A stretch of 64,000 nucleotides of DNA from a virus (taxonomy: Duplodnaviria > Caudoviricetes): positions 6,249-70,248 of the IMG/VR virus record IMGVR_UViG_3300021408_000002; one strand, given 5' to 3'. Below the pieces are notes generated by a model. The model saw only the letters and a list, made by a program, of their open reading frames with translations, searched no databases and had not been told where the DNA came from. A program made the translations under genes and the position numbers. Shown here one piece after another: positions 13,283 to 55,812 of this stretch. Position 1 is the stretch's first letter. Every line of letters begins with the position of its first letter.

Positions 13283-13851
13283 TCATTTCGCTCAGTTACC
13301 AGCAGTTGAATTCCTGCCGCCACTGGGGAACAGCGCGGCACAAGCAGCACCTCGTCGCCAACCGTGAGCGCACCACTCAGGGCCATGCCTGCGCGATGCC
13401 TGCGATCGCGTGGCGCACCTTGGCCGACCGGTTGACGAAGGAAGTGTTCTATGCGTCGACGGGGCGGCACCGCAAGACCCGTCTCGAGCGCGATGGGGTG
13501 CCGGCGACTCGAGCTGCGTTGCAGAAGATCGAGCAGGCGCTCGCCAATATGCAGATGCATCCGGCGTTGCACAACCAGAAGGTCGTCGGCTACTCCGGTG
13601 ACGTCGTGATCGCCTGGCCGCTGCCTGACGGTAAATGGTCGCTGTATCCGGTCCAGGATCAGGCCCCGGTGTTCTTCGTGCCCGTCGTCGACGACAAGTT
13701 CAAGTCGCTCGGCGTCACGACCTCGTGGCGCCCGCAGGCCGACTGTCCGGCCGACCTGCCCGACCTGTTCCCTGATCTAGTGGATCACGTCGGCTGGCTC
13801 GTCGGCGGACATGACGTCGTTGGAGTCGCCGAGGACCACCGAGGCACGTGA
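13279..13851 (+). CDS. Hypothetical protein, convergent with TerL (75-nt overlap)
   Basis: GTGA overlap; last gene of + operon. Confidence 0.6.
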   Translation: MIISLSYQQLNSCRHWGTARHKQHLVANRERTTQGHACAMPAIAWRTLADRLTKEVFYASTGRHRKTRLERDGVPATRAALQKIEQALANMQMHPALHNQKVVGYSGDVVIAWPLPDGKWSLYPVQDQAPVFFVPVVDDKFKSLGVTTSWRPQADCPADLPDLFPDLVDHVGWLVGGHDVVGVAEDHRGT

Positions 13852-16238
13852 CCCGCGGCCTCGCAGGTGGAGGTCGGGGATCAACATTTCGACGACGTTC
13901 GAGTCGAGCATGTCGTTGATGGCGTGCGCGACGACGTCGCAGTTGTGGACCAGGATTCCATTGGCGAAGTAGGTGCCATCCTCAGTCGTCAGGTTGTACA
14001 CCGCGACGTCGTCGCTTACCCCGCATCGCTTTGCCGTGCGCTCGGTGCCATTCCATTCCTTCGGGTGAGCGATGCCACGCGGAAGCAAGCGGTCGGATGC
14101 GGTCAAGAAGGGCCAACTGTTGTGGGCTTCGCGCTCGTAGGCTACGGCTCGCTGAGTGTTCTCGTTCGTGATCACGGCGGGGGAGAGCCTCCAGGTTGGA
14201 GGGGTTGTTGTTGGTAAAGTCGCCGTCAATGTGGTGGACCGCCCATCCTTCCGGGATTGGCCCGTTGATTGACTTCCACACCTCTTGATGTAGCGCCTGA
14301 ACACCTCGCTTGATGTGTTGGCCGCCGGGTTTGTAGTAGTGGCGATGTGCGGGTGTGCTCGAGTTTGGATATCGACGGAACTCGATTCCCGCGAAGACGA
14401 CCGTGTCGACCTCGACGGAGCCTCGCTCGGTCGAGAGGGTGACCAAGGGGTCGCCGTGGCGGCGCATTCGGGCCATGTGCTTGTGGCAAAGACCTCGGCC
14501 GCCCTTGGCGAGGGCCGTGCAATCTTCGATTGAGCAAGGAAGCGTCTTTCGGTTGACCATATGGACACGATATCATCATGCCGACCAAGGTCGCCGAGAT
14601 TCACCCACCCGGACATCGCCCACACGGGATGGTTCCTCGTCCCTACCAGGTCGCCCACCCCGACGACGTCGGCCACCCCGGTGCATCCCGCCCACAGAAC
14701 CCGGGTCCAACCCGAAGCACCCAACACGAATTGCCCGGACCGGACCTGATCCAGGCGGACCTCGCCGGTCGGTGTCGTTACAGCCGTCTCTCCGACTAAA
14801 CATTGGTCGTCGTACCGTCCCTTGCGACCGTCGCCCATCATCTTGCGGTGCTCGTCGATGAACGGCGCAACCCAATCCGGCGACTTGCCATCCTTGCCGC
14901 GGGGCAGCTTCACTCGACCCTGCTGCATCAGTGTCGAGTACGGCCGGGCCCGCTCCTCCTTCGAGCCTTCGGCGCGCGCCATGGTGACGGTGTAGTTCTT
15001 CAGTTCTCTTTTGTAGAACGCAATCACAGCCAGCCCGTCGCCATTCCTGGATCCTTCGATGAGTACGGGAACGGACACTCCGTCGGTGAACGCAGTCACC
15101 TTGACTTCGTCCATCACTTCGTTCGCACCCTTCTGGAATCGGGTGATGTCCTGCACATAGAAGACGTCGTCGACGTCTTTCGTGACGAGCCCACCGACGC
15201 TGTAGTCACCCCCCCCTTCCGAGGCTGCAAGATCCCAGGCTCGCCGGCGGGACTGCATCCACGGTTTGTCGTCCGGGTCGTACCACGCCCACTTATCCGG
15301 GGGGAACATGCCGCCCGTCGGCGAGGTCGGTTCCTGTTCGTACACGACGGAGAAGATGAACGGAACGGTCGTGCGCTTGCGCCGGTAGAAGAACGAGTCG
15401 TGCCAGCGCTCCGGGTCTTCCTCTTCGCCTGGCTTCGAGAACCGTGTCTTCAGGGGCTCGCCTCGTTTCCGGCCGAGGAGGTCGCGCCACTCCGGGTCAT
15501 CCGGGTTCTCTTCGTCGAAGTCGGGTTCGGCGATCGCCTTGAACACGAGGGATTCCCAGCGGTCTCCGTCGTACTCAGGGTCCTTCGCCTGCGCGTCGAT
15601 GCGGCCGGACATGTCGTCGTCCGCGAAGCGGGTGGCCCCGAGGAGCATCGTGCCGCCGGGTTGCAGGCGAGGGAGGATGGCACCGTGAAACTCTGCCCAG
15701 TGCGTTTCCTTCGTCTTCGTTGAGCCGGCTTCCTCCATGCCCTTGATCAGGTCGCCGAGTACGACCAAATCTCCTGGCATACCTGAAATTCGCGAGCCGA
15801 TCCCGACGGACAGCATTCCGCCTTGGTGGCCGGCGAGACGCCATTCCTGTTTCGATTCGTAGTTGGCGTCAACGGTCTGGCCGAAGAACTCGGGCCCCCA
15901 CTTCATGAAGATGTCCCGCACGAGCGCGCCGGATCGGATCGCGAGGTCGTCGGAGTAGGCGATCAGGATGACTCTGGTATCAGGCCAATGGCCGAGCACC
16001 CAGAGAGGAGTGAACAGCTCGACCAGGCTGCTTTTCCCGACTGTGGAGGAGCGTTGATCTTCAGGAACCGCTGGTTCTCTCGGTCACTGATCGCGTCCAT
16101 GATCCGGCCTTCACACATCCGCAGCCACGGATCGGCCTGATATGTCGACCGCGGCCCGTAGAGGTGGGGCGCCAGTGTTTGCGCGAGACGGAGTGGCGAG
16201 CCGACCTTGCGGAGATGTTCGAGATCGGGGTTAATCAT
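13777..16238 (-). CDS. terL: Terminase large subunit, interrupted by a -1 frameshift (16032-16038) and an intein (13942-14802)
   Basis: Walker A APPQSGK|SS after shift; VILIAYSDDLA; LVVLGDLIK (Walker B); nuclease AWDLA...GDYS and YDDQ|CD. Confidence 0.9.
13982..14560 (-). CDS. HNH endonuclease nested out of frame inside the TerL intein
   Basis: Zn finger CSIEDC...GLCHKH...RHGDP; HQEVWKSINGPIPEGWAVHHIDGDFTNNNPSNLEAL; own TATCGT-N6-ATG. Confidence 0.9.
   Translation of the reverse strand: MVNRKTLPCSIEDCTALAKGGRGLCHKHMARMRRHGDPLVTLSTERGSVEVDTVVFAGIEFRRYPNSSTPAHRHYYKPGGQHIKRGVQALHQEVWKSINGPIPEGWAVHHIDGDFTNNNPSNLEALPRRDHEREHSASRSLRARSPQQLALLDRIRPLASAWHRSPEGMEWHRAHGKAMRGKRRRRGVQPDD
14561..14572 (-). 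promoter_or_regulatory. Candidate leaderless promoter for the nested HNH
   Basis: Minus strand TATCGT-gtccat-ATG; same spacing as about ten other genes here. Confidence 0.55.
16032..16038 (-). other. -1 slippery heptamer G GGA AAA in TerL Walker A
   Basis: tcG GGA AAA gc; -1 frame continues SSLVELFTPLWVLGHWPD into the 740-aa ORF. Confidence 0.6.
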
Positions 16239-16692
16239 CGACTACCTCGGCGTCGACGATGTGATCCATCTCGTCGAGCGGCCCACCGAGAGCGAGCGCC
16301 TGGTGGCCGTGTTTCGCCATCAGTTCGAGGGCTGCGCTGGTGACGGCGAGCACCCGTTCCGCGGCTGGTGTGCCCTGGTGGCTGACGTTGACGCGGTGTG
16401 TCGGCGGGCGCCATCCGCGGTCCGCCCCCTTGCAGTACAGCCACATTTGTATCATTGGCACGTTGCCGGCCTGAGCCATCTGCGCCGACTTCTCTTCGAT
16501 GGACTCGATGAGCTGCTCGCCGGCCGCTTCCATCACTTCGACGAACTGGGCGTCCGACTGTAGTTCTCGGAGCTGGCGAAGGCTCCAGCCGACGGCGATC
16601 GCAGCGTTCTTCGGTCCGACCCCTTTCGAGATCATGCCGAGGAACTCCTCCATGCCGTCCAGGACGACGGGAGACAGCAGATCGGTCGACAT
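16231..16692 (-). CDS. Probable terminase small subunit
   Basis: Directly upstream of TerL; N-terminal HTH (KNAAIAVGWSLRQL); AGNVPMIQMWL. Confidence 0.65.
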   Translation of the reverse strand: MSTDLLSPVVLDGMEEFLGMISKGVGPKNAAIAVGWSLRQLRELQSDAQFVEVMEAAGEQLIESIEEKSAQMAQAGNVPMIQMWLYCKGADRGWRPPTHRVNVSHQGTPAAERVLAVTSAALELMAKHGHQALALGGPLDEMDHIVDAEVVDD

Positions 16693-18150: not shown

Positions 18151-18356
18151 AGCTCTTCGATCCACCGCCGGACCGGAACGAGTACCGGGTTTGGAATGAG
18201 ACTGCGACGCGCCCACTCACCGACGGAGCGTTTGGGTCGGCTTCGGCTTCGCGCCGGAAGCGTTGCGCCGAACTGAGTGCCCGGATGACCGGCTGTGAAC
18301 GTCCACGTCGGCGGCTGATCAAGTCGCCGTGGACCGGACGCACCTACCTGGTTTAG
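18147..18356 (+). CDS. Small basic hypothetical protein
   Basis: GTGA overlap; convergent overlap with 18353. Confidence 0.45.
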   Translation: MKLFDPPPDRNEYRVWNETATRPLTDGAFGSASASRRKRCAELSARMTGCERPRRRLIKSPWTGRTYLV

Positions 18357-19618
18357 GCACCGAGGAGCTGCACGACGCGCTCCTCGCAAAGACTGCGCGC
18401 ATTCACGAGGCGGCCGACCTTCACCCCGTGCTCCTTCGCGTAGATCTTGGCGTCACGGGCGCCGGAGCGGAGGAACACCTTCTCGTGTTCGGTGCCACGC
18501 CCGACGATGTAGAAGTGGGTGCCCTGGAAGATGCCGCTGTAAGCGGCACAGTTATGTACGATGATCCCTTGTGAGACGTACCAGTGCGTCTTCGTATGGA
18601 GGTTGTAGACATGGCACGAGACCGAATCGCACTGGATGTCGATGATCTCATCGAGCGCTACGAGGCTGGAGATTCCCTTGTTTCCATCGGTGCCCGCCAT
18701 GGCGTCAGCAAGACGGTCGTCACTCAACGTTTGCGCCGCGCTGGCGTCTTGAAATCCGAAGGCCGTCGCTGCCCCCCCATCGACATGGCCGCGGCGGCGG
18801 CGCTTTACCTGGCGGGTGATGGGCTGAAACCTCTCGCCCGTTCTTTCGGCGTTAACCCTCGCACACTCCAGCGACGTCTGATCCAACTTGATATCCCCAT
18901 TCGGGGACGGTCGGAGACCCAGTTGATCCGAGCGTCGCGCATGACTAGCGACCAGCGGCGAAACCAGACTATGGCTGCCCACGCCGCAGTTCGCGGGCGG
19001 ATCGTCCCAGACCGGGAAGTGATAGCGCGAGCTGTTGACCGCGAACACACGCTCTCGATGCGCCGTATAGGAGAAGCCGAATTCCAAGCCCTGCTCGTGG
19101 CTCGCGGCATTGAGGTCGCGCCCCAGAAGGCCGTCTGGCGATACAACCTCGATCTCGCTGTGGCTCCCGTCGCCGTGGAAATCCATCGCAGTACTAGTCA
19201 CCCGATGAGGTTCACTGAACTCCGCAAGCGAGTCGAAGATCTCGCTGATCGGGGATGGATGACGCTCTGGATTTGGCTGAACAAGCGAAAGCCTGTCGAG
19301 TATGCCGACCTCGCCGTCGATAAGGCGATCGCCCACATCAACACAGCCCAGCGAGACCCAACCACGGTTCGTGAGTACAGGGTGATTCGGAGTAGCGGTG
19401 AGGACGCGCCTTGACCTCAGGGTGATCTGAACCATGTCGCCGTCATACCGGCGGCGAGTTGCCTGTTGGATGCCTGGGGCCACCACGAGCGCATCGCCAG
19501 GAAGACATTCGTACGGGTCGTCGCCGAGGAGCACCATCGACCGGTCGTTGCGGGTCAGGTCTTCGAACTGGGCGTTCAACTTCGCCAGAGCACCACGCTT
19601 ATTACAACCGCAGCCCAT
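18353..19618 (-). CDS. Intein-containing precursor; spliced product is a 102-aa unknown protein (MGCGCNK...)
   Basis: GAGGAG RBS, ATG 19618; 37-aa N-extein, 65-aa C-extein. Confidence 0.8.
   Translation of the reverse strand: MGCGCNKRGALAKLNAQFEDLTRNDRSMVLLGDDPYECLPGDALVVAPGIQQATRRRYDGDMVQITLRSRRVLTATPNHPVLTNRGWVSLGCVDVGDRLIDGEVGILDRLSLVQPNPERHPSPISEIFDSLAEFSEPHRVTSTAMDFHGDGSHSEIEVVSPDGLLGRDLNAASHEQGLEFGFSYTAHRERVFAVNSSRYHFPVWDDPPANCGVGSHSLVSPLVASHARRSDQLGLRPSPNGDIKLDQTSLECARVNAERTGERFQPITRQVKRRRRGHVDGGAATAFGFQDASAAQTLSDDRLADAMAGTDGNKGISSLVALDEIIDIQCDSVSCHVYNLHTKTHWYVSQGIIVHNCAAYSGIFQGTHFYIVGRGTEHEKVFLRSGARDAKIYAKEHGVKVGRLVNARSLCEERVVQLLGA
18551..19507 (-). mobile_element. Class-1 intein (319 aa); no in-frame endonuclease
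   Basis: Block A CLPGDALV; block B TATPNHPVLTNRGW; block F/G VYNLHTKTHWYVSQGIIVHN followed by Cys +1. Confidence 0.9.
18611..19414 (+). CDS. Antisense nested gene: tandem HTH + DUF559/Vsr-like PD-(D/E)xK endonuclease
   Basis: GGAGGT RBS 7 nt upstream; two HTH repeats; E...QKAVWRYNLDLAVAPVAVEIH...H...LADRGWMTLWIW. Confidence 0.82.
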   Translation: MARDRIALDVDDLIERYEAGDSLVSIGARHGVSKTVVTQRLRRAGVLKSEGRRCPPIDMAAAAALYLAGDGLKPLARSFGVNPRTLQRRLIQLDIPIRGRSETQLIRASRMTSDQRRNQTMAAHAAVRGRIVPDREVIARAVDREHTLSMRRIGEAEFQALLVARGIEVAPQKAVWRYNLDLAVAPVAVEIHRSTSHPMRFTELRKRVEDLADRGWMTLWIWLNKRKPVEYADLAVDKAIAHINTAQRDPTTVREYRVIRSSGEDAP

Positions 19619-19632
19619 GTCATCTCCTCTGA

Positions 19633-19830
19633 TTACGCCGGCACGAGGCCATGGCATCGGATCTCGGCGATCGCACCGCGGAGTCCGTCCGTGACGGCGA
19701 GCGGGATGTCGCGTATATGCGCGGCATCGTGAAGCTGGTCCTCGATGACATGTGAGAGTAGTCGCTCTGCGAGCGCAAGGAGATCACTGAGTGTGTCAGC
19801 ATCGACCGCAACCAGACGAGGGCTCTCCAT
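19633..19830 (-). CDS. Small hypothetical protein
   Basis: TAACAT-N6-ATG. Confidence 0.55.
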   Translation of the reverse strand: MESPRLVAVDADTLSDLLALAERLLSHVIEDQLHDAAHIRDIPLAVTDGLRGAIAEIRCHGLVPA

Positions 19831-43899: not shown

Positions 43900-44244
43900 T
43901 CAGCGGTGCATCAGGCGATCGGCGTGACCGTCCTCGCCGGTGTAGTTCCGCGGGAACGGGCGCAGGCCGAGACGGGCGGCTTCGACGGCGTGCTCCGTCT
44001 TCCAGTCGTGATGAAATCGACAGAGCATCTGGACGTTGGTTGGGTCGAGGTGTCCTCCGGGTCGGACGCCGCGCTGGTCGTATTCGTCGGGGTCGAGGGG
44101 GCCGCCACATGCGATTTGCGGCATGAGGTGTTCTGCCCAGCATCGGTTTCCGTCGCGGTGAATCACCTGCTCGATGACGGTGATGCGGGCGTCGCGTTCG
44201 TTGCGGCGCTTGTCCGACATCAGCTTCAGGCGGGAACGCTTCAT
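43900..44244 (-). CDS. Small HNH-like protein (first His appears replaced by Asp)
   Basis: RDGNRC...CGGPLDPDE...GG..DPTNVQMLCRFHHDW. Confidence 0.7.
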   Translation of the reverse strand: MKRSRLKLMSDKRRNERDARITVIEQVIHRDGNRCWAEHLMPQIACGGPLDPDEYDQRGVRPGGHLDPTNVQMLCRFHHDWKTEHAVEAARLGLRPFPRNYTGEDGHADRLMHR

Positions 44245-44347
44245 GCCCTGGCGAAGAGCTGCTGTGACATACCCCGACAGTACTCCTATGCTGGTGGGGT
44301 CGGAACCGCATCACGGCTCCGACCCCCAGCCACCGGAGGTCAGTCCG

Positions 44348-44923
44348 ATGACAACACCAGTCTGCCTTGTCGATGTGTGTGAACGCCCCGCCAAGACCCG
44401 CGGCTGTTGCCAAATGCATTACTTTCGCCTTCTGAAACACGGGGACCCACTTGGTGGCCGCACTCCTCCCGGAGAGGCCGCGGCCTTCTTCGAGGTCGGC
44501 GTCGTCCTCGACACCGACCTGTGCATCATCTGGCCTTATTCGACTGAATACGACGGTTACGGCAAATTCCAGGCCAACAAAAAGAAGGTCAAGGTTCACA
44601 TCGCCGCTTGCGCTCGGGCTCACGGACCACGTCCGCCGGGCCTAGTCGTTCGTCATCTCTGCAACAATCCTCCGTGTTTCAACGGTCGGCATCTTCGATG
44701 GGGGACCCGCAAGGAGAATAGCGAAGACATGATCCTTAACGGCACGACTCCCGCTGGCGAGAGGGCGCCGTGGGCGAAGTTGACGTGGGCCATCGTTGAT
44801 GAGATTCGAAGGCGGCTCTCACGAGGGGAGACGATCGCTGACCTCGCTGTGGAGTTCAATGTTGTCTACGGGACGGTGTGGCATGTTGCCCGCGGATCGA
44901 CCTGGTTACGCCCCGGAATATAA
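44348..44923 (+). CDS. Zn-finger + HNH endonuclease + HTH, antisense insertion
   Basis: CLVDVC...GCCQMHY..LLKHGDP; CIIWP; VRHLCNNPPCFNGRHLRWGTRKEN. Confidence 0.88.
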   Translation: MTTPVCLVDVCERPAKTRGCCQMHYFRLLKHGDPLGGRTPPGEAAAFFEVGVVLDTDLCIIWPYSTEYDGYGKFQANKKKVKVHIAACARAHGPRPPGLVVRHLCNNPPCFNGRHLRWGTRKENSEDMILNGTTPAGERAPWAKLTWAIVDEIRRRLSRGETIADLAVEFNVVYGTVWHVARGSTWLRPGI

Positions 44924-54655: not shown

Positions 54656-55276
54656 ATGAGACCGAACTATGTCTACGTCGCCAGCTCGTGGCGCAACGAA
54701 TTCCAGGCCGGAGTGTGCGCCGCGCTAAAAGCCGCGGGCATCGATCACTACGACTTCAAGAACCCCGAAGGCGGCACCGGGTTCTCATGGAAGGAAGTCA
54801 AGACCGATGTCGACAGCATCGTGTTCTGCGAGCACTGCGCGCTCACCATCAAGCATTCAACGTTCGCTGGTCTCGGATTCTGGGAGCCCGACTGGAACCC
54901 GTCTGATGATCCGCAGATCTGGCGTCATGTCGTCACTGGTTACGGCTCGTGCTTCCTCGGCAACAACAAGTTCGCCTCACCATCCAAGGGTTCCGACTGG
55001 GAGGAAGTCGATAAGTACCTCCGCATGATCGAGCACCCTCGTGCGCTCGAAGGGTTTGCCGCCGACTTCGCCGCAATGGAGCAGGCCGACACGTTCGTGC
55101 TTGTACTGCCGTGCGGCAAGTCGGCGCACCTCGAACTCGGCTGGGCGGTCGGCGCCGGCAAGCGCACCGCCATCCTACTCGAAGACCCAGTGGAGCCCGA
55201 GCTGATGTACAAGATGTGCGACTACCTCGCGCCGACGCTCATCAATCTCCTGGGCTGGTTGGGAGTGGAGGATTGA
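54656..55276 (+). CDS. Nucleoside 2-deoxyribosyltransferase-like protein with Cys-bearing insert
   Basis: YVASSWRN; DFAAMEQADTFVLVLPCGKSAHLELGWAVG. Confidence 0.8.
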   Translation: MRPNYVYVASSWRNEFQAGVCAALKAAGIDHYDFKNPEGGTGFSWKEVKTDVDSIVFCEHCALTIKHSTFAGLGFWEPDWNPSDDPQIWRHVVTGYGSCFLGNNKFASPSKGSDWEEVDKYLRMIEHPRALEGFAADFAAMEQADTFVLVLPCGKSAHLELGWAVGAGKRTAILLEDPVEPELMYKMCDYLAPTLINLLGWLGVED

Positions 55277-55812
55277 TGAACGTCTTGGAACAAGCCATGG
55301 AGCTGTGCTCCGTCCCTGGGTGCACGCGACGATCGAAGTGTCGCGGATGGTGCGGGGCACATCACGAACGCTGGCGAATGCATGGGGATGTTCAGGCGGA
55401 TCGACCGGTAGGCAAGCTGCCTCGGTCGGCTTGCCTGGCGTGCGGGAGCGAGGTTCGTCGGTCCACTAACCAATATTGCAGCCAGCGCTGTTCGAGCCTC
55501 CACCGGGATGCGGCCGCCACCCTTCGCTCCCTGGAGGTTCATCCGCGTTCGGTGCCCGTAGGGACGGAGCGGATGCGGGTTCATTCGAAAACGGGGGACA
55601 CCCGCGTTTGGGTCAAAGTCGCCGAACCACACACTTGGAGGCCCAGGGCGGTCGCCGTCTGGGAAGCCACCCACGGGCCACTACCAAGGGGCATGATCGT
55701 CCATCACAAGAATCGTGACGGCCTGCATGACCAAATCGACAACCTCGAAGCGATGACCCGCGCTGAGCACCTCGAGGAACACCGTCAGGAACTGACGGAG
55801 GCGAAGCGATGA
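55276..55812 (+). CDS. Zn-finger + HNH endonuclease
   Basis: CSVPGC...GWCGAHH..W.MHGD; WEATHGPLPRGMIVHHKNRDGLHDQIDNL. Confidence 0.88.
   Translation: MNVLEQAMELCSVPGCTRRSKCRGWCGAHHERWRMHGDVQADRPVGKLPRSACLACGSEVRRSTNQYCSQRCSSLHRDAAATLRSLEVHPRSVPVGTERMRVHSKTGDTRVWVKVAEPHTWRPRAVAVWEATHGPLPRGMIVHHKNRDGLHDQIDNLEAMTRAEHLEEHRQELTEAKR

Follow-up and report, generated by a model that had tools for sequence, protein, structure and literature searches.

The DNA analysed here (the window, 64,000 nucleotides) comprises bases 6249–70248 of the 70,248-base IMG/VR virus record IMGVR_UViG_3300021408_000002, a tailed phage whose record is rated complete by CheckV. On the minus strand of the window, the gene for the large terminase subunit (terL) is interrupted by a class-1 intein, and within this intein, on the same strand and one base out of register, lies an HNH_3 homing-endonuclease gene. 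In the following, we describe the anatomy of this nested arrangement, its recurrence among relatives, the constraint acting on the two overlapping frames, the signals from which the nuclease may be expressed, and the interpretation that we draw from them. The components of the locus are:

13777–15999, minus strand: main open frame of TerL, 740 residues from a GTG at 15999
14803–15999, minus strand: TerL N-extein
13942–14802, minus strand: class-1 intein of 287 residues, with Cys1, block B, block F and block G, followed by the +1 Cys
13941 (+1 Cys) to 13777, minus strand: TerL C-extein
13982–14560, minus strand: HNH_3 homing-endonuclease gene, 192 codons plus TGA; Pfam HNH_3 (PF13392), E 6.3e-16

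The Host Gene and Its Intein

The host gene is recognised by its Terminase_6C nuclease domain (TerL residues 254–392; Pfam, E 1.6e-13). Cys1 of the intein (CLVGETAV; codon 14802–14800) comes after ...GRYDDQ, adjoining the conserved DD motif of this domain, and an intein-less relative (L019) reads ..SRHDD/CVDCF.. at the insertion point (slash). Block B (GTRNHPVW, with T55 and H58) follows about 55 residues after Cys1, block F (VYNLTTED) occupies 14001–13978, and block G (ILVHN) ends the intein directly before the +1 Cys at 13941–13939, ILVHN plus C spanning 13939–13953. In this phage the tail reads ...VYNLTTEDGTYFANGILVHN followed by C, and the pattern ..VYNLT..YFANG(I/V)LVHN with the following C is kept in nearly all relatives. 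The N-terminal Cys, the TxxH of block B, the C-terminal His-Asn and the +1 Cys are those of class-1 inteins; residues C1, T55, H58, V285, N287 and C288 are invariant in an alignment of 20 relatives (alignment A2). A single continuous open reading frame (ORF) runs through the intein, unlike the situation in split inteins and fractured genes. The intact motifs, together with terL being essential, suggest that the intein is active in splicing. Among GenBank phages, neither megablast with terL nor tblastn with the 84-residue N-terminal lobe of the intein (E up to 1e-3) gave a match.

In the AlphaFold model of the intein, three parts can be distinguished by their values of pLDDT (predicted local distance difference test):

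14539–14802, minus strand: N-terminal Hint lobe, residues 1–88, pLDDT 82–98; conserved across relatives
14017–14520, minus strand: intein-frame reading of the HNH gene, residues 95–262; predicted unstructured linker, pLDDT 39–48, stop-free
13942–14016, minus strand: C-terminal Hint lobe, residues 263–287, with blocks F and G, pLDDT 79–98

Trimmed of its low-confidence middle, the model matches the mini-inteins gp41-1 (Z 16.2; 111 residues aligned, root-mean-square deviation (rmsd) 2.0), Mtu RecA (Z 15.8) and NpuDnaB (Z 15.2). The Hint fold, as modelled, is formed by the N- and C-terminal parts of the intein, and the overlap of about 170 host-frame residues most likely forms a flexible linker joining two confidently predicted lobes; the only conserved columns within residues 95–262 are those forced by the HNH frame.

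The Nested HNH Gene

Codon position 1 of the HNH gene coincides with codon position 3 of the intein, (15999 − 14560) mod 3 being 2. The ATG lies within intein codon 81, past block B, and the gene ends inside block F. Coordinates, register and motifs are those given in an earlier note on this DNA, which had placed the HNH frame after block B and through block F with a one-base offset. Two short stretches delimit the overlap:

14573–14578, minus strand: TGA TGA, closing the HNH frame at a distance of four codons from its ATG; in the intein frame part of the H-D-D codons CAT GAT GAT
13982–14002, minus strand: true dual-coding stretch, in which the HNH end G-V-Q-P-D-D-stop lies over V-Y-N-L-T-T-E of intein block F

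The paired stops ahead of the ATG argue against a fusion of the HNH to the N-terminal part of the intein through a simple upstream indel. The ..VQP.D tail is also found in the relatives P0001, P0002 and P0015 and in the Tetrasphaera phage TJE1.

The protein scores 58.2 bits against the Pfam HNH_3 profile (cut-off 24.8); apart from this and a weak zinc-finger match, neither a PF01844-type HNH nor Endonuclease_7 was detected at E up to 0.1. Its layout comprises an N-terminal Cys/His zinc finger (residues 9–28), a β-sheet with the HNH core (about 50–135), and a helical tail. The residues H109, H110, N118, N122, H131 and H135, which include the catalytic His and the Asn/His of the ββα-metal motif, are invariant across 46 relatives; degenerate catalytic residues, which the earlier note had counted as a sign against its reading, are thus not encountered. 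The AlphaFold model (pLDDT 89.1) has its best match among solved structures in the homing endonuclease I-HmuI (1u3e; Z 6.9, rmsd 3.4, 78 residues), the sole chain with Z of at least 5, and 1u3e is also the top Foldseek row, weak at E 0.23. The guanine-plus-cytosine (GC) content at third codon positions (GC3) of the gene is 0.66, compared with 0.77–0.84 for the other genes of this phage that share its start motif; this low value fits either a dual-coding constraint or a foreign origin.

Recurrence of the Nested Arrangement

A profile scan of IMG/VR yielded 380 relatives, the best 80 of which were classified. In 63 of these 80, the HNH frame is nested within a long ORF in the same register, with ..LVHN[C] just past the HNH stop; L033 and L069 are ordinary nested cases on frame reading. 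Two more (L037 and L078) are nested with the HNH frame broken into short pieces and the terL/intein frame still open; these two resemble stages in the loss of the nuclease, on the way to a mini-intein whose linker is junk. The remaining 15 carry a free-standing HNH directly downstream of an intein-less terL. Nesting is, hence, the majority state of this HNH_3 lineage among the relatives classified, and it also prevails in bacterial genomes, where 11 of 13 prophage loci are nested (hosts: Streptomyces, Nocardiopsis, Glycomyces, Gordonia, Corynebacterium, Bacteroides, Omnitrophota, Ktedonobacterales and Gemmatimonadales).

Altogether, more than 55 non-redundant sequences from phages and prophages, of 30–70% GC and with hosts from several bacterial phyla, show this nesting at an identical offset; the hosts of phages carrying this HNH family include Firmicutes, Proteobacteria, Actinomycetota and other phyla. 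Examples are L004 (high GC, 60% HNH identity to the window copy) and L005 (45% GC, 53% identity), the Logan contig L017 and the Streptomyces prophage L018; other terL-associated HNHs are 58–62% identical to the window HNH. Four GenBank phages have an HNH match under an annotated terL, namely Tetrasphaera TJE1, Acinetobacter Highwayman, Rhodobacteraceae LS06-2018-MD07 and Clostridium phiCDHM19. In all four, the match start minus the terL start is 2 modulo 3, the terL frame is open, and block A and G flanks are present. An in-frame version of an HNH intein was found at none of the 93 loci (80 viral, 13 from bacterial genomes), and no protein of 337–2000 residues in a collection of 5.8 billion proteins matches the HNH, the latter being weak evidence by the search tool's own rating.

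Current annotations of these loci hold one gene or the other. In TJE1, Highwayman, LS06-2018-MD07 and phiCDHM19 (L012, L013, L015 and L016), terL alone is annotated and the nested HNH is missed; in Streptomyces xanthochromogenes JBIVYE010000027.1 (L018), the HNH is called as a gene and the enclosing terL of 858 residues is left uncalled. Since gene callers annotate TerL alone, or the HNH at the expense of TerL, many phage and prophage annotations of HNH and terminase genes are incomplete.

Constraint on the Two Frames

In the register described, a stop arises in the TerL frame wherever an HNH codon xTG is followed by A, or xTA by A or G; the first of these had been pointed out in the earlier note, together with the proposal that the open host frame implies selection on both frames and that a synonymous shuffle be simulated. 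Three null models were applied to the window copy. When synonymous codons are permuted within the HNH, 1.7 stops are expected in the intein frame, and none with a probability of 0.09; drawing codons from extein usage gives 1.9 and 0.10, and shuffling the HNH codon order 3.3 and 0.016. The third frame across the window HNH contains 6 stops, at 63% GC. The simulated probabilities of 0.09–0.10 are weak on their own, and it is the family as a whole that lends the open frame its significance. In 55 of 55 non-redundant nested copies the host frame is stop-free, with a median of 13 stops in the third frame, whereas 11 of the 12 free-standing homologues have at least one stop in the equivalent frame (range 0–12, mean 5.1). 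For phiCDHM19, whose GC content is 30%, a stop-free host frame has a probability below 2e-4; 33 stops fall in the third frame.

A comparison of nested pairs reveals which of the two proteins is constrained. At 85% nucleotide identity or more, differences per site at HNH positions 1/2/3 amount to 0.05/0.04/0.15, and at 70–85% identity to 0.21/0.15/0.44. HNH position 3 is the middle position of the host codon; therefore, each change there alters a host-frame residue. This excess at position 3, the invariant catalytic residues and the structural models show that the HNH protein is under purifying selection at the amino-acid level and that the host frame across the overlap is constrained only to stay stop-free. 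Of the selection proposed for both frames, the amino-acid constraint on the HNH and the keeping open of the host frame are thus retained, and the symmetry between them is given up.

Signals for Expression of the HNH Gene

Directly ahead of the HNH gene, the following element is present:

14567–14575, minus strand: extended −10-like element TG-A-TATCGT, six bases before the HNH ATG; candidate leaderless promoter

It consists of TATCGT (14572–14567) preceded by TG (14575–14574), with no Shine-Dalgarno sequence before the ATG, and corresponds to the leaderless type, i.e., TAnnnT 6–7 bases before an ATG or GTG lacking a Shine-Dalgarno sequence. Leaderless promoters consisting of a −10 element only are of the actinobacterial type. 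A start at 14560 is indicated because the conserved N-terminal zinc finger is included only from there.

The motif is not confined to the HNH gene. On both strands of the window, TAnnnT-N6-[AG]TG occurs at 14 sites. At 12 of these the start codon is the earliest in its frame, and six of the sites (seven, if an ORF of 96 codons is counted) open long ORFs of high GC3, as compared with 4% under the null (first starts, ORFs of at least 100 codons). Gene starts of this kind, besides that of the HNH, are:

40651, minus strand: start of a tape-measure gene of 2261 residues
33852, 42490, 22930, 17423 and 16692, minus strand: further gene starts with TAnnnT-N6-[AG]TG

This pattern suggests many leaderless, individually promoted genes in the phage.

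Expression signals were counted at 54 non-redundant nested loci. The HNH frame opens 1–18 codons before the start codon in every relative. A Shine-Dalgarno sequence 4–11 bases before the HNH start is present at 25 of the 54 loci (background of all ATG/GTG, 8%), TAnnnT exactly six bases before the start and no Shine-Dalgarno sequence at 18 (background 1%), and neither signal at 11; no locus was scored with both, a count that is not an independent test of exclusivity, given that the script halted at the first start with either signal. The extended form TGnTAnnnT stands at the opening of the HNH frame at 21 of the 54 loci (background 4%), and in 15 of these 21 in an identical register, where TGA serves as the HNH-frame stop and as part of the intein G-D codons (e.g., TGATATAAT, TGATATACT and TGATACAAT). 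Prophages of Streptomyces, Nocardiopsis, Glycomyces and Gordonia carry the motif as well, and the rare codons GAT and ATA are retained at it even at 70% GC. The leaderless-type TATCGT-N6-ATG reported in the earlier note is, hence, present, enriched at the gene starts of this phage and recurrent in relatives; by this comparison, the leaderless reading of the HNH gains support and is plausible.

Paralogues, Free-Standing Relatives and Possible Mobility

Two further HNH_3 genes are encoded in the window:

55111–55812, plus strand: HNH_3 paralogue, E 6.5e-12; 28% identity over 162 aligned positions with 38 gaps
44174–44923, plus strand: HNH_3 paralogue, E 4e-11

Both share the N-terminal Cys/His finger and a ..RHGDP.. 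module with the nested HNH, at 24–28% identity, and both are placed on long branches outside the terL-associated group. In the earlier note, a close resemblance had been seen between the nested HNH and the free gene at 55276 (ORF 55111–55812), and a free gene had been suggested as donor. The shared zinc finger and HNH core are confirmed, and the closeness is limited to them, with 28% identity overall; as distant paralogues on long branches, both this gene and that at 44174–44923 are implausible donors.

The nearest relatives of the HNH are instead terL-associated, either nested or just downstream of an intein-less terL. The free-standing HNH of L019 begins 21 bases past the stop of its intein-less terL, and that of BP10, located just upstream of the small terminase subunit gene terS, is sister to the nested copy of Highwayman. 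In the HNH tree, nested and free-standing states are interleaved, and well-supported branches force at least six changes between them; the tree is a quick and poorly resolved one, rooted only on the long-branch paralogues, and we claim no direction of change from it. The single register in all nested copies favours a single origin of nesting. Between L080 and L093, identity is 87% for the HNH, 91% for the intein N lobe and 53% for the extein; a greater likeness of intein and HNH than of extein, which is seen in some pairs, is as predicted by a unit moving between terL genes.

A separate case is L100 (1622–3800), where a free HNH follows an intein-less terL and is in turn followed by a diverged second terL 3′ end (..DRYG.A.FDL.P..VTYY.NIWR stop). 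This free copy is stop-free in the frame used by the hosts of nested copies (+1), and the locus may represent a recent escape or a precursor state.

Further Observations in the Window

Upstream of the main TerL frame, a frame break is found at the Walker A motif (15963–16238, minus strand), the N-terminus ..KINAPPQSGK being off-frame from the 740-residue ORF with ..GKSSLVELF..VILIAYSDD. The frame switches at TCG GGA AAA GCA, where the sequence G_GGA_AAA (16032–16038) forms a canonical −1 slippery heptamer and GKS is regained once the frame slips by −1; a 9-base-pair hairpin lies about six bases downstream of the heptamer, with a fold z-score of just −1.1. The terL of L004 is one continuous frame. 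The break could be due to a programmed frameshift, a genuine deletion from A5 to A4 or faulty assembly.

The phage has a second intein in a 434-residue ORF (18353–19657, minus strand; Intein_splicing, PF14890, E 1.9e-9), within which an antisense ORF of 276 residues (18584–19414, plus strand) gives helix-turn-helix matches and a weak match to REase_MTES_1575. This layout resembles the antisense nuclease arrangement of Gosselin et al. 2025 (10.1101/2025.01.02.630785).

Interpretation and Alternative Explanations

In our assessment, the locus probably harbours a composite selfish element in terL, in which a class-1 mini-intein encloses a complete, same-strand, I-HmuI-like HNH_3 gene that is separately expressed and acts in homing. 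Ribosomes would translate terL across the insert without a break, and the intein would splice itself out to yield active TerL. The HNH would be made separately, here via the internal extended −10 promoter TGATATCGT, with transcription starting at or next to the A of the ATG at 14560 and giving a leaderless messenger RNA; in many relatives, an internal Shine-Dalgarno sequence would be used instead. During co-infection, the nuclease would nick or cut intein-less terL alleles near the insertion site, repair would copy intein and HNH together, and the intein would shield its carrier both by interrupting the target site and by its self-removal from the protein.

Several observations weigh against this interpretation. 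Taken for the window alone, the open host frame is only weakly unusual by chance (P ~0.1). As a −10 element, TATCGT is weak. It also overlies intein codons (G-D-I) that are themselves conserved, so that the conservation of the hexamer may in part be at the protein level; this last point is countered by the survival of GAT and ATA at 70% GC. A sigma-70 scan of 13700–16400 found no −35/−10 pair, the scanner being one that ignores −10-only promoters. The frame break at Walker A leaves this copy of TerL perhaps defective or the assembly imperfect. Finally, the free-standing relatives adjoin terminase genes, which fits a role in packaging, too.

The last observation is the starting point of the explanation that survives best next to the composite element, although we consider it unlikely: the HNH would be expressed as a terminase accessory nuclease in the service of the phage and not as a homing enzyme. 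Small PF01844-type HNH proteins such as HK97 gp74 are encoded beside terminase genes and are needed for cos cleavage, and the position of 15 out of 15 free-standing relatives directly beside terL, and of the BP10 copy just upstream of terS, would suit such a function. The nested protein is, however, an HNH_3 with an I-HmuI-like fold and not of the small PF01844 type; it is housed in a selfish intein, its distribution is sporadic with nested and free states interleaved in the tree, the free HNH of L100 borders on a second copy of the terL 3′ end, and in some pairs intein and HNH together are better conserved than the extein, all of which are traits typical of mobile nuclease genes.

Slightly less probable still is a silent relic, i.e., a mini-intein with a junk linker that is inherited only vertically and whose nuclease is not expressed. 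Decay does occur, as evident from the broken HNH frames in the open host frames of L037 and L078, and both the weak −10 hexamer and the length of the window HNH (192 residues versus 200–270 in most relatives) might be taken as its signs. Yet, the closest relatives (P0001, P0002 and L004) have the same short C-terminal end, the frame of 192 codons is intact with invariant catalytic residues, the bias of differences towards position 3 reflects ongoing constraint on the HNH protein, and in some pairs the extein is less conserved than intein and HNH.

We regard it as very improbable that ribosomes shift out of the TerL/intein frame and so produce the HNH joined to the N-extein and the N lobe of the intein. 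A canonical −1 slippery heptamer exists elsewhere in the gene (16032–16038), and a Shine-Dalgarno sequence is lacking before the HNH ATG; the −1 shift would, however, have to fall within the interval of 12 bases that separates TGA TGA from the ATG, which holds no slippery motif, and the relatives have starts with Shine-Dalgarno or −10-like signals at this position, with stops 1–10 codons upstream. Least credible of all is an artefact or recent damage, by which two compensating indels would make an in-frame HNH intein look shifted: the one-base break at the Walker A homopolymer (16032–16038) of the same gene gives it some colour, but the offset is shared by the more than 55 independent sequences, cultured GenBank phages among them, the in-frame version is absent from the 93 loci and, as weak evidence, from the protein collection, the TGA TGA stands four codons before the ATG, and the intact tape-measure ORF of 6.8 kb indicates that indel errors are infrequent in this record.

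A more far-reaching version of the composite-element interpretation can be offered tentatively, with a little less confidence than would be needed to prefer it. According to it, all nested copies would descend from one ancient, overprinted element of single origin, in which about 200 codons have been held open in two frames down to roughly 40% protein identity and across at least five phyla; the out-of-frame state would be a stable endpoint, G-D-I would double as an extended −10 element, and the free copies would represent repeated captures or escapes. If so, nested and free copies would form a natural series for the acquisition of nucleases by inteins. And if the reading of a promoter within coding sequence is true, three layers of information are combined in nine bases, namely intein residues, the stop of the nested frame and the −10 element.

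How inteins gained their homing endonucleases is an old question, and the view of "splicing first, nuclease invades later" predicts a separately translated nuclease inside an intein. The HNH_3/TerL lineage supplies such intermediates, comprising single-register nested copies, decaying nested copies and free-standing sisters by the same target gene. With these states in one lineage, comparative and bench work can address in which order the events took place and what dual coding costs.

Comparison with Known Systems

The general kind of arrangement has been known since preprints of 2025. In a survey of PhagesDB, Gosselin et al. 2025 (10.1101/2025.01.02.630785) described an endonuclease VII-like nuclease (IPR004211), matching T4 endonuclease VII over residues 1–67, that is encoded out-of-frame in inteins, an arrangement called rare; antisense LAGLIDADG and VSR-like nucleases were also reported, and invasion by free-standing nuclease genes was proposed. 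The present locus agrees with that system in several ways: host and nuclease share a strand, the nuclease ORF occupies frame 3 relative to the intein and lies between the splicing blocks, and the host frame stays open; the terminase large subunit is among the hosts, the in-frame reading is devoid of a recognisable fold, and a free-standing nuclease gene invading the intein is the proposed origin. It differs in the nuclease, which is an I-HmuI-like HNH_3 (PF13392) with its core at about 90–135 and not endonuclease VII-like, and in breadth, their survey covering PhagesDB actinophages only and the family described here phages of several phyla. The tblastn search with the intein N lobe, in which no GenBank phage matched, gave no link to the preprint's Angelicase, Affeca, Keitabear and Sedona inteins.

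A hidden out-of-frame HNH has likewise been described in the DNA methylase of mycobacteriophage ShiLan (Arsenault et al., Genes 2025, PMC11855218). There, too, the HNH lies on the same strand within an open host gene, has no Shine-Dalgarno sequence and was proposed to be initiated in a leaderless manner; ShiLan, however, has no intein, and its insert is kept as a loop of the protein, whereas a complete Hint domain flanks the insert in TerL. Fractured genes with split inteins (Dassa et al., NAR 2009, PMC2677866) have in common with the present element a separately translated homing-endonuclease gene between the N- and C-terminal parts of an intein, in their case a free-standing gene between the halves; in contrast to the single continuous ORF with an overlapping frame kept open in terL, they comprise two ORFs whose products are spliced in trans. 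For the cyanobacterial dnaX intein, an out-of-frame nuclease has been described and secondary invasion of a mini-intein proposed; the overlapping nuclease ORF inside an intein is similar, while the host is a cellular gene and the nuclease, according to 10.1101/2025.01.02.630785, an antisense LAGLIDADG enzyme.

Among nucleases of solved structure, the nicking HNH enzyme I-HmuI from the SPO1 group I intron (1u3e) shares with the nested HNH the His-Me finger, an N-terminal β-sheet DNA-binding region and its occurrence in a phage. In contrast, I-HmuI is intron-encoded and not nested in an intein, identity is only 19%, and the window HNH possesses an N-terminal zinc finger and lacks the C-terminal helix-turn-helix of I-HmuI.

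A literature search found no published description of this HNH_3/TerL-intein family. Set against the systems above, what differs here is the nuclease family (HNH_3, I-HmuI-like), the scale and host breadth of its nesting, the constancy of the register, the complementary Shine-Dalgarno and −10 solutions for expressing the inner gene, and the free-standing sisters residing beside terL.

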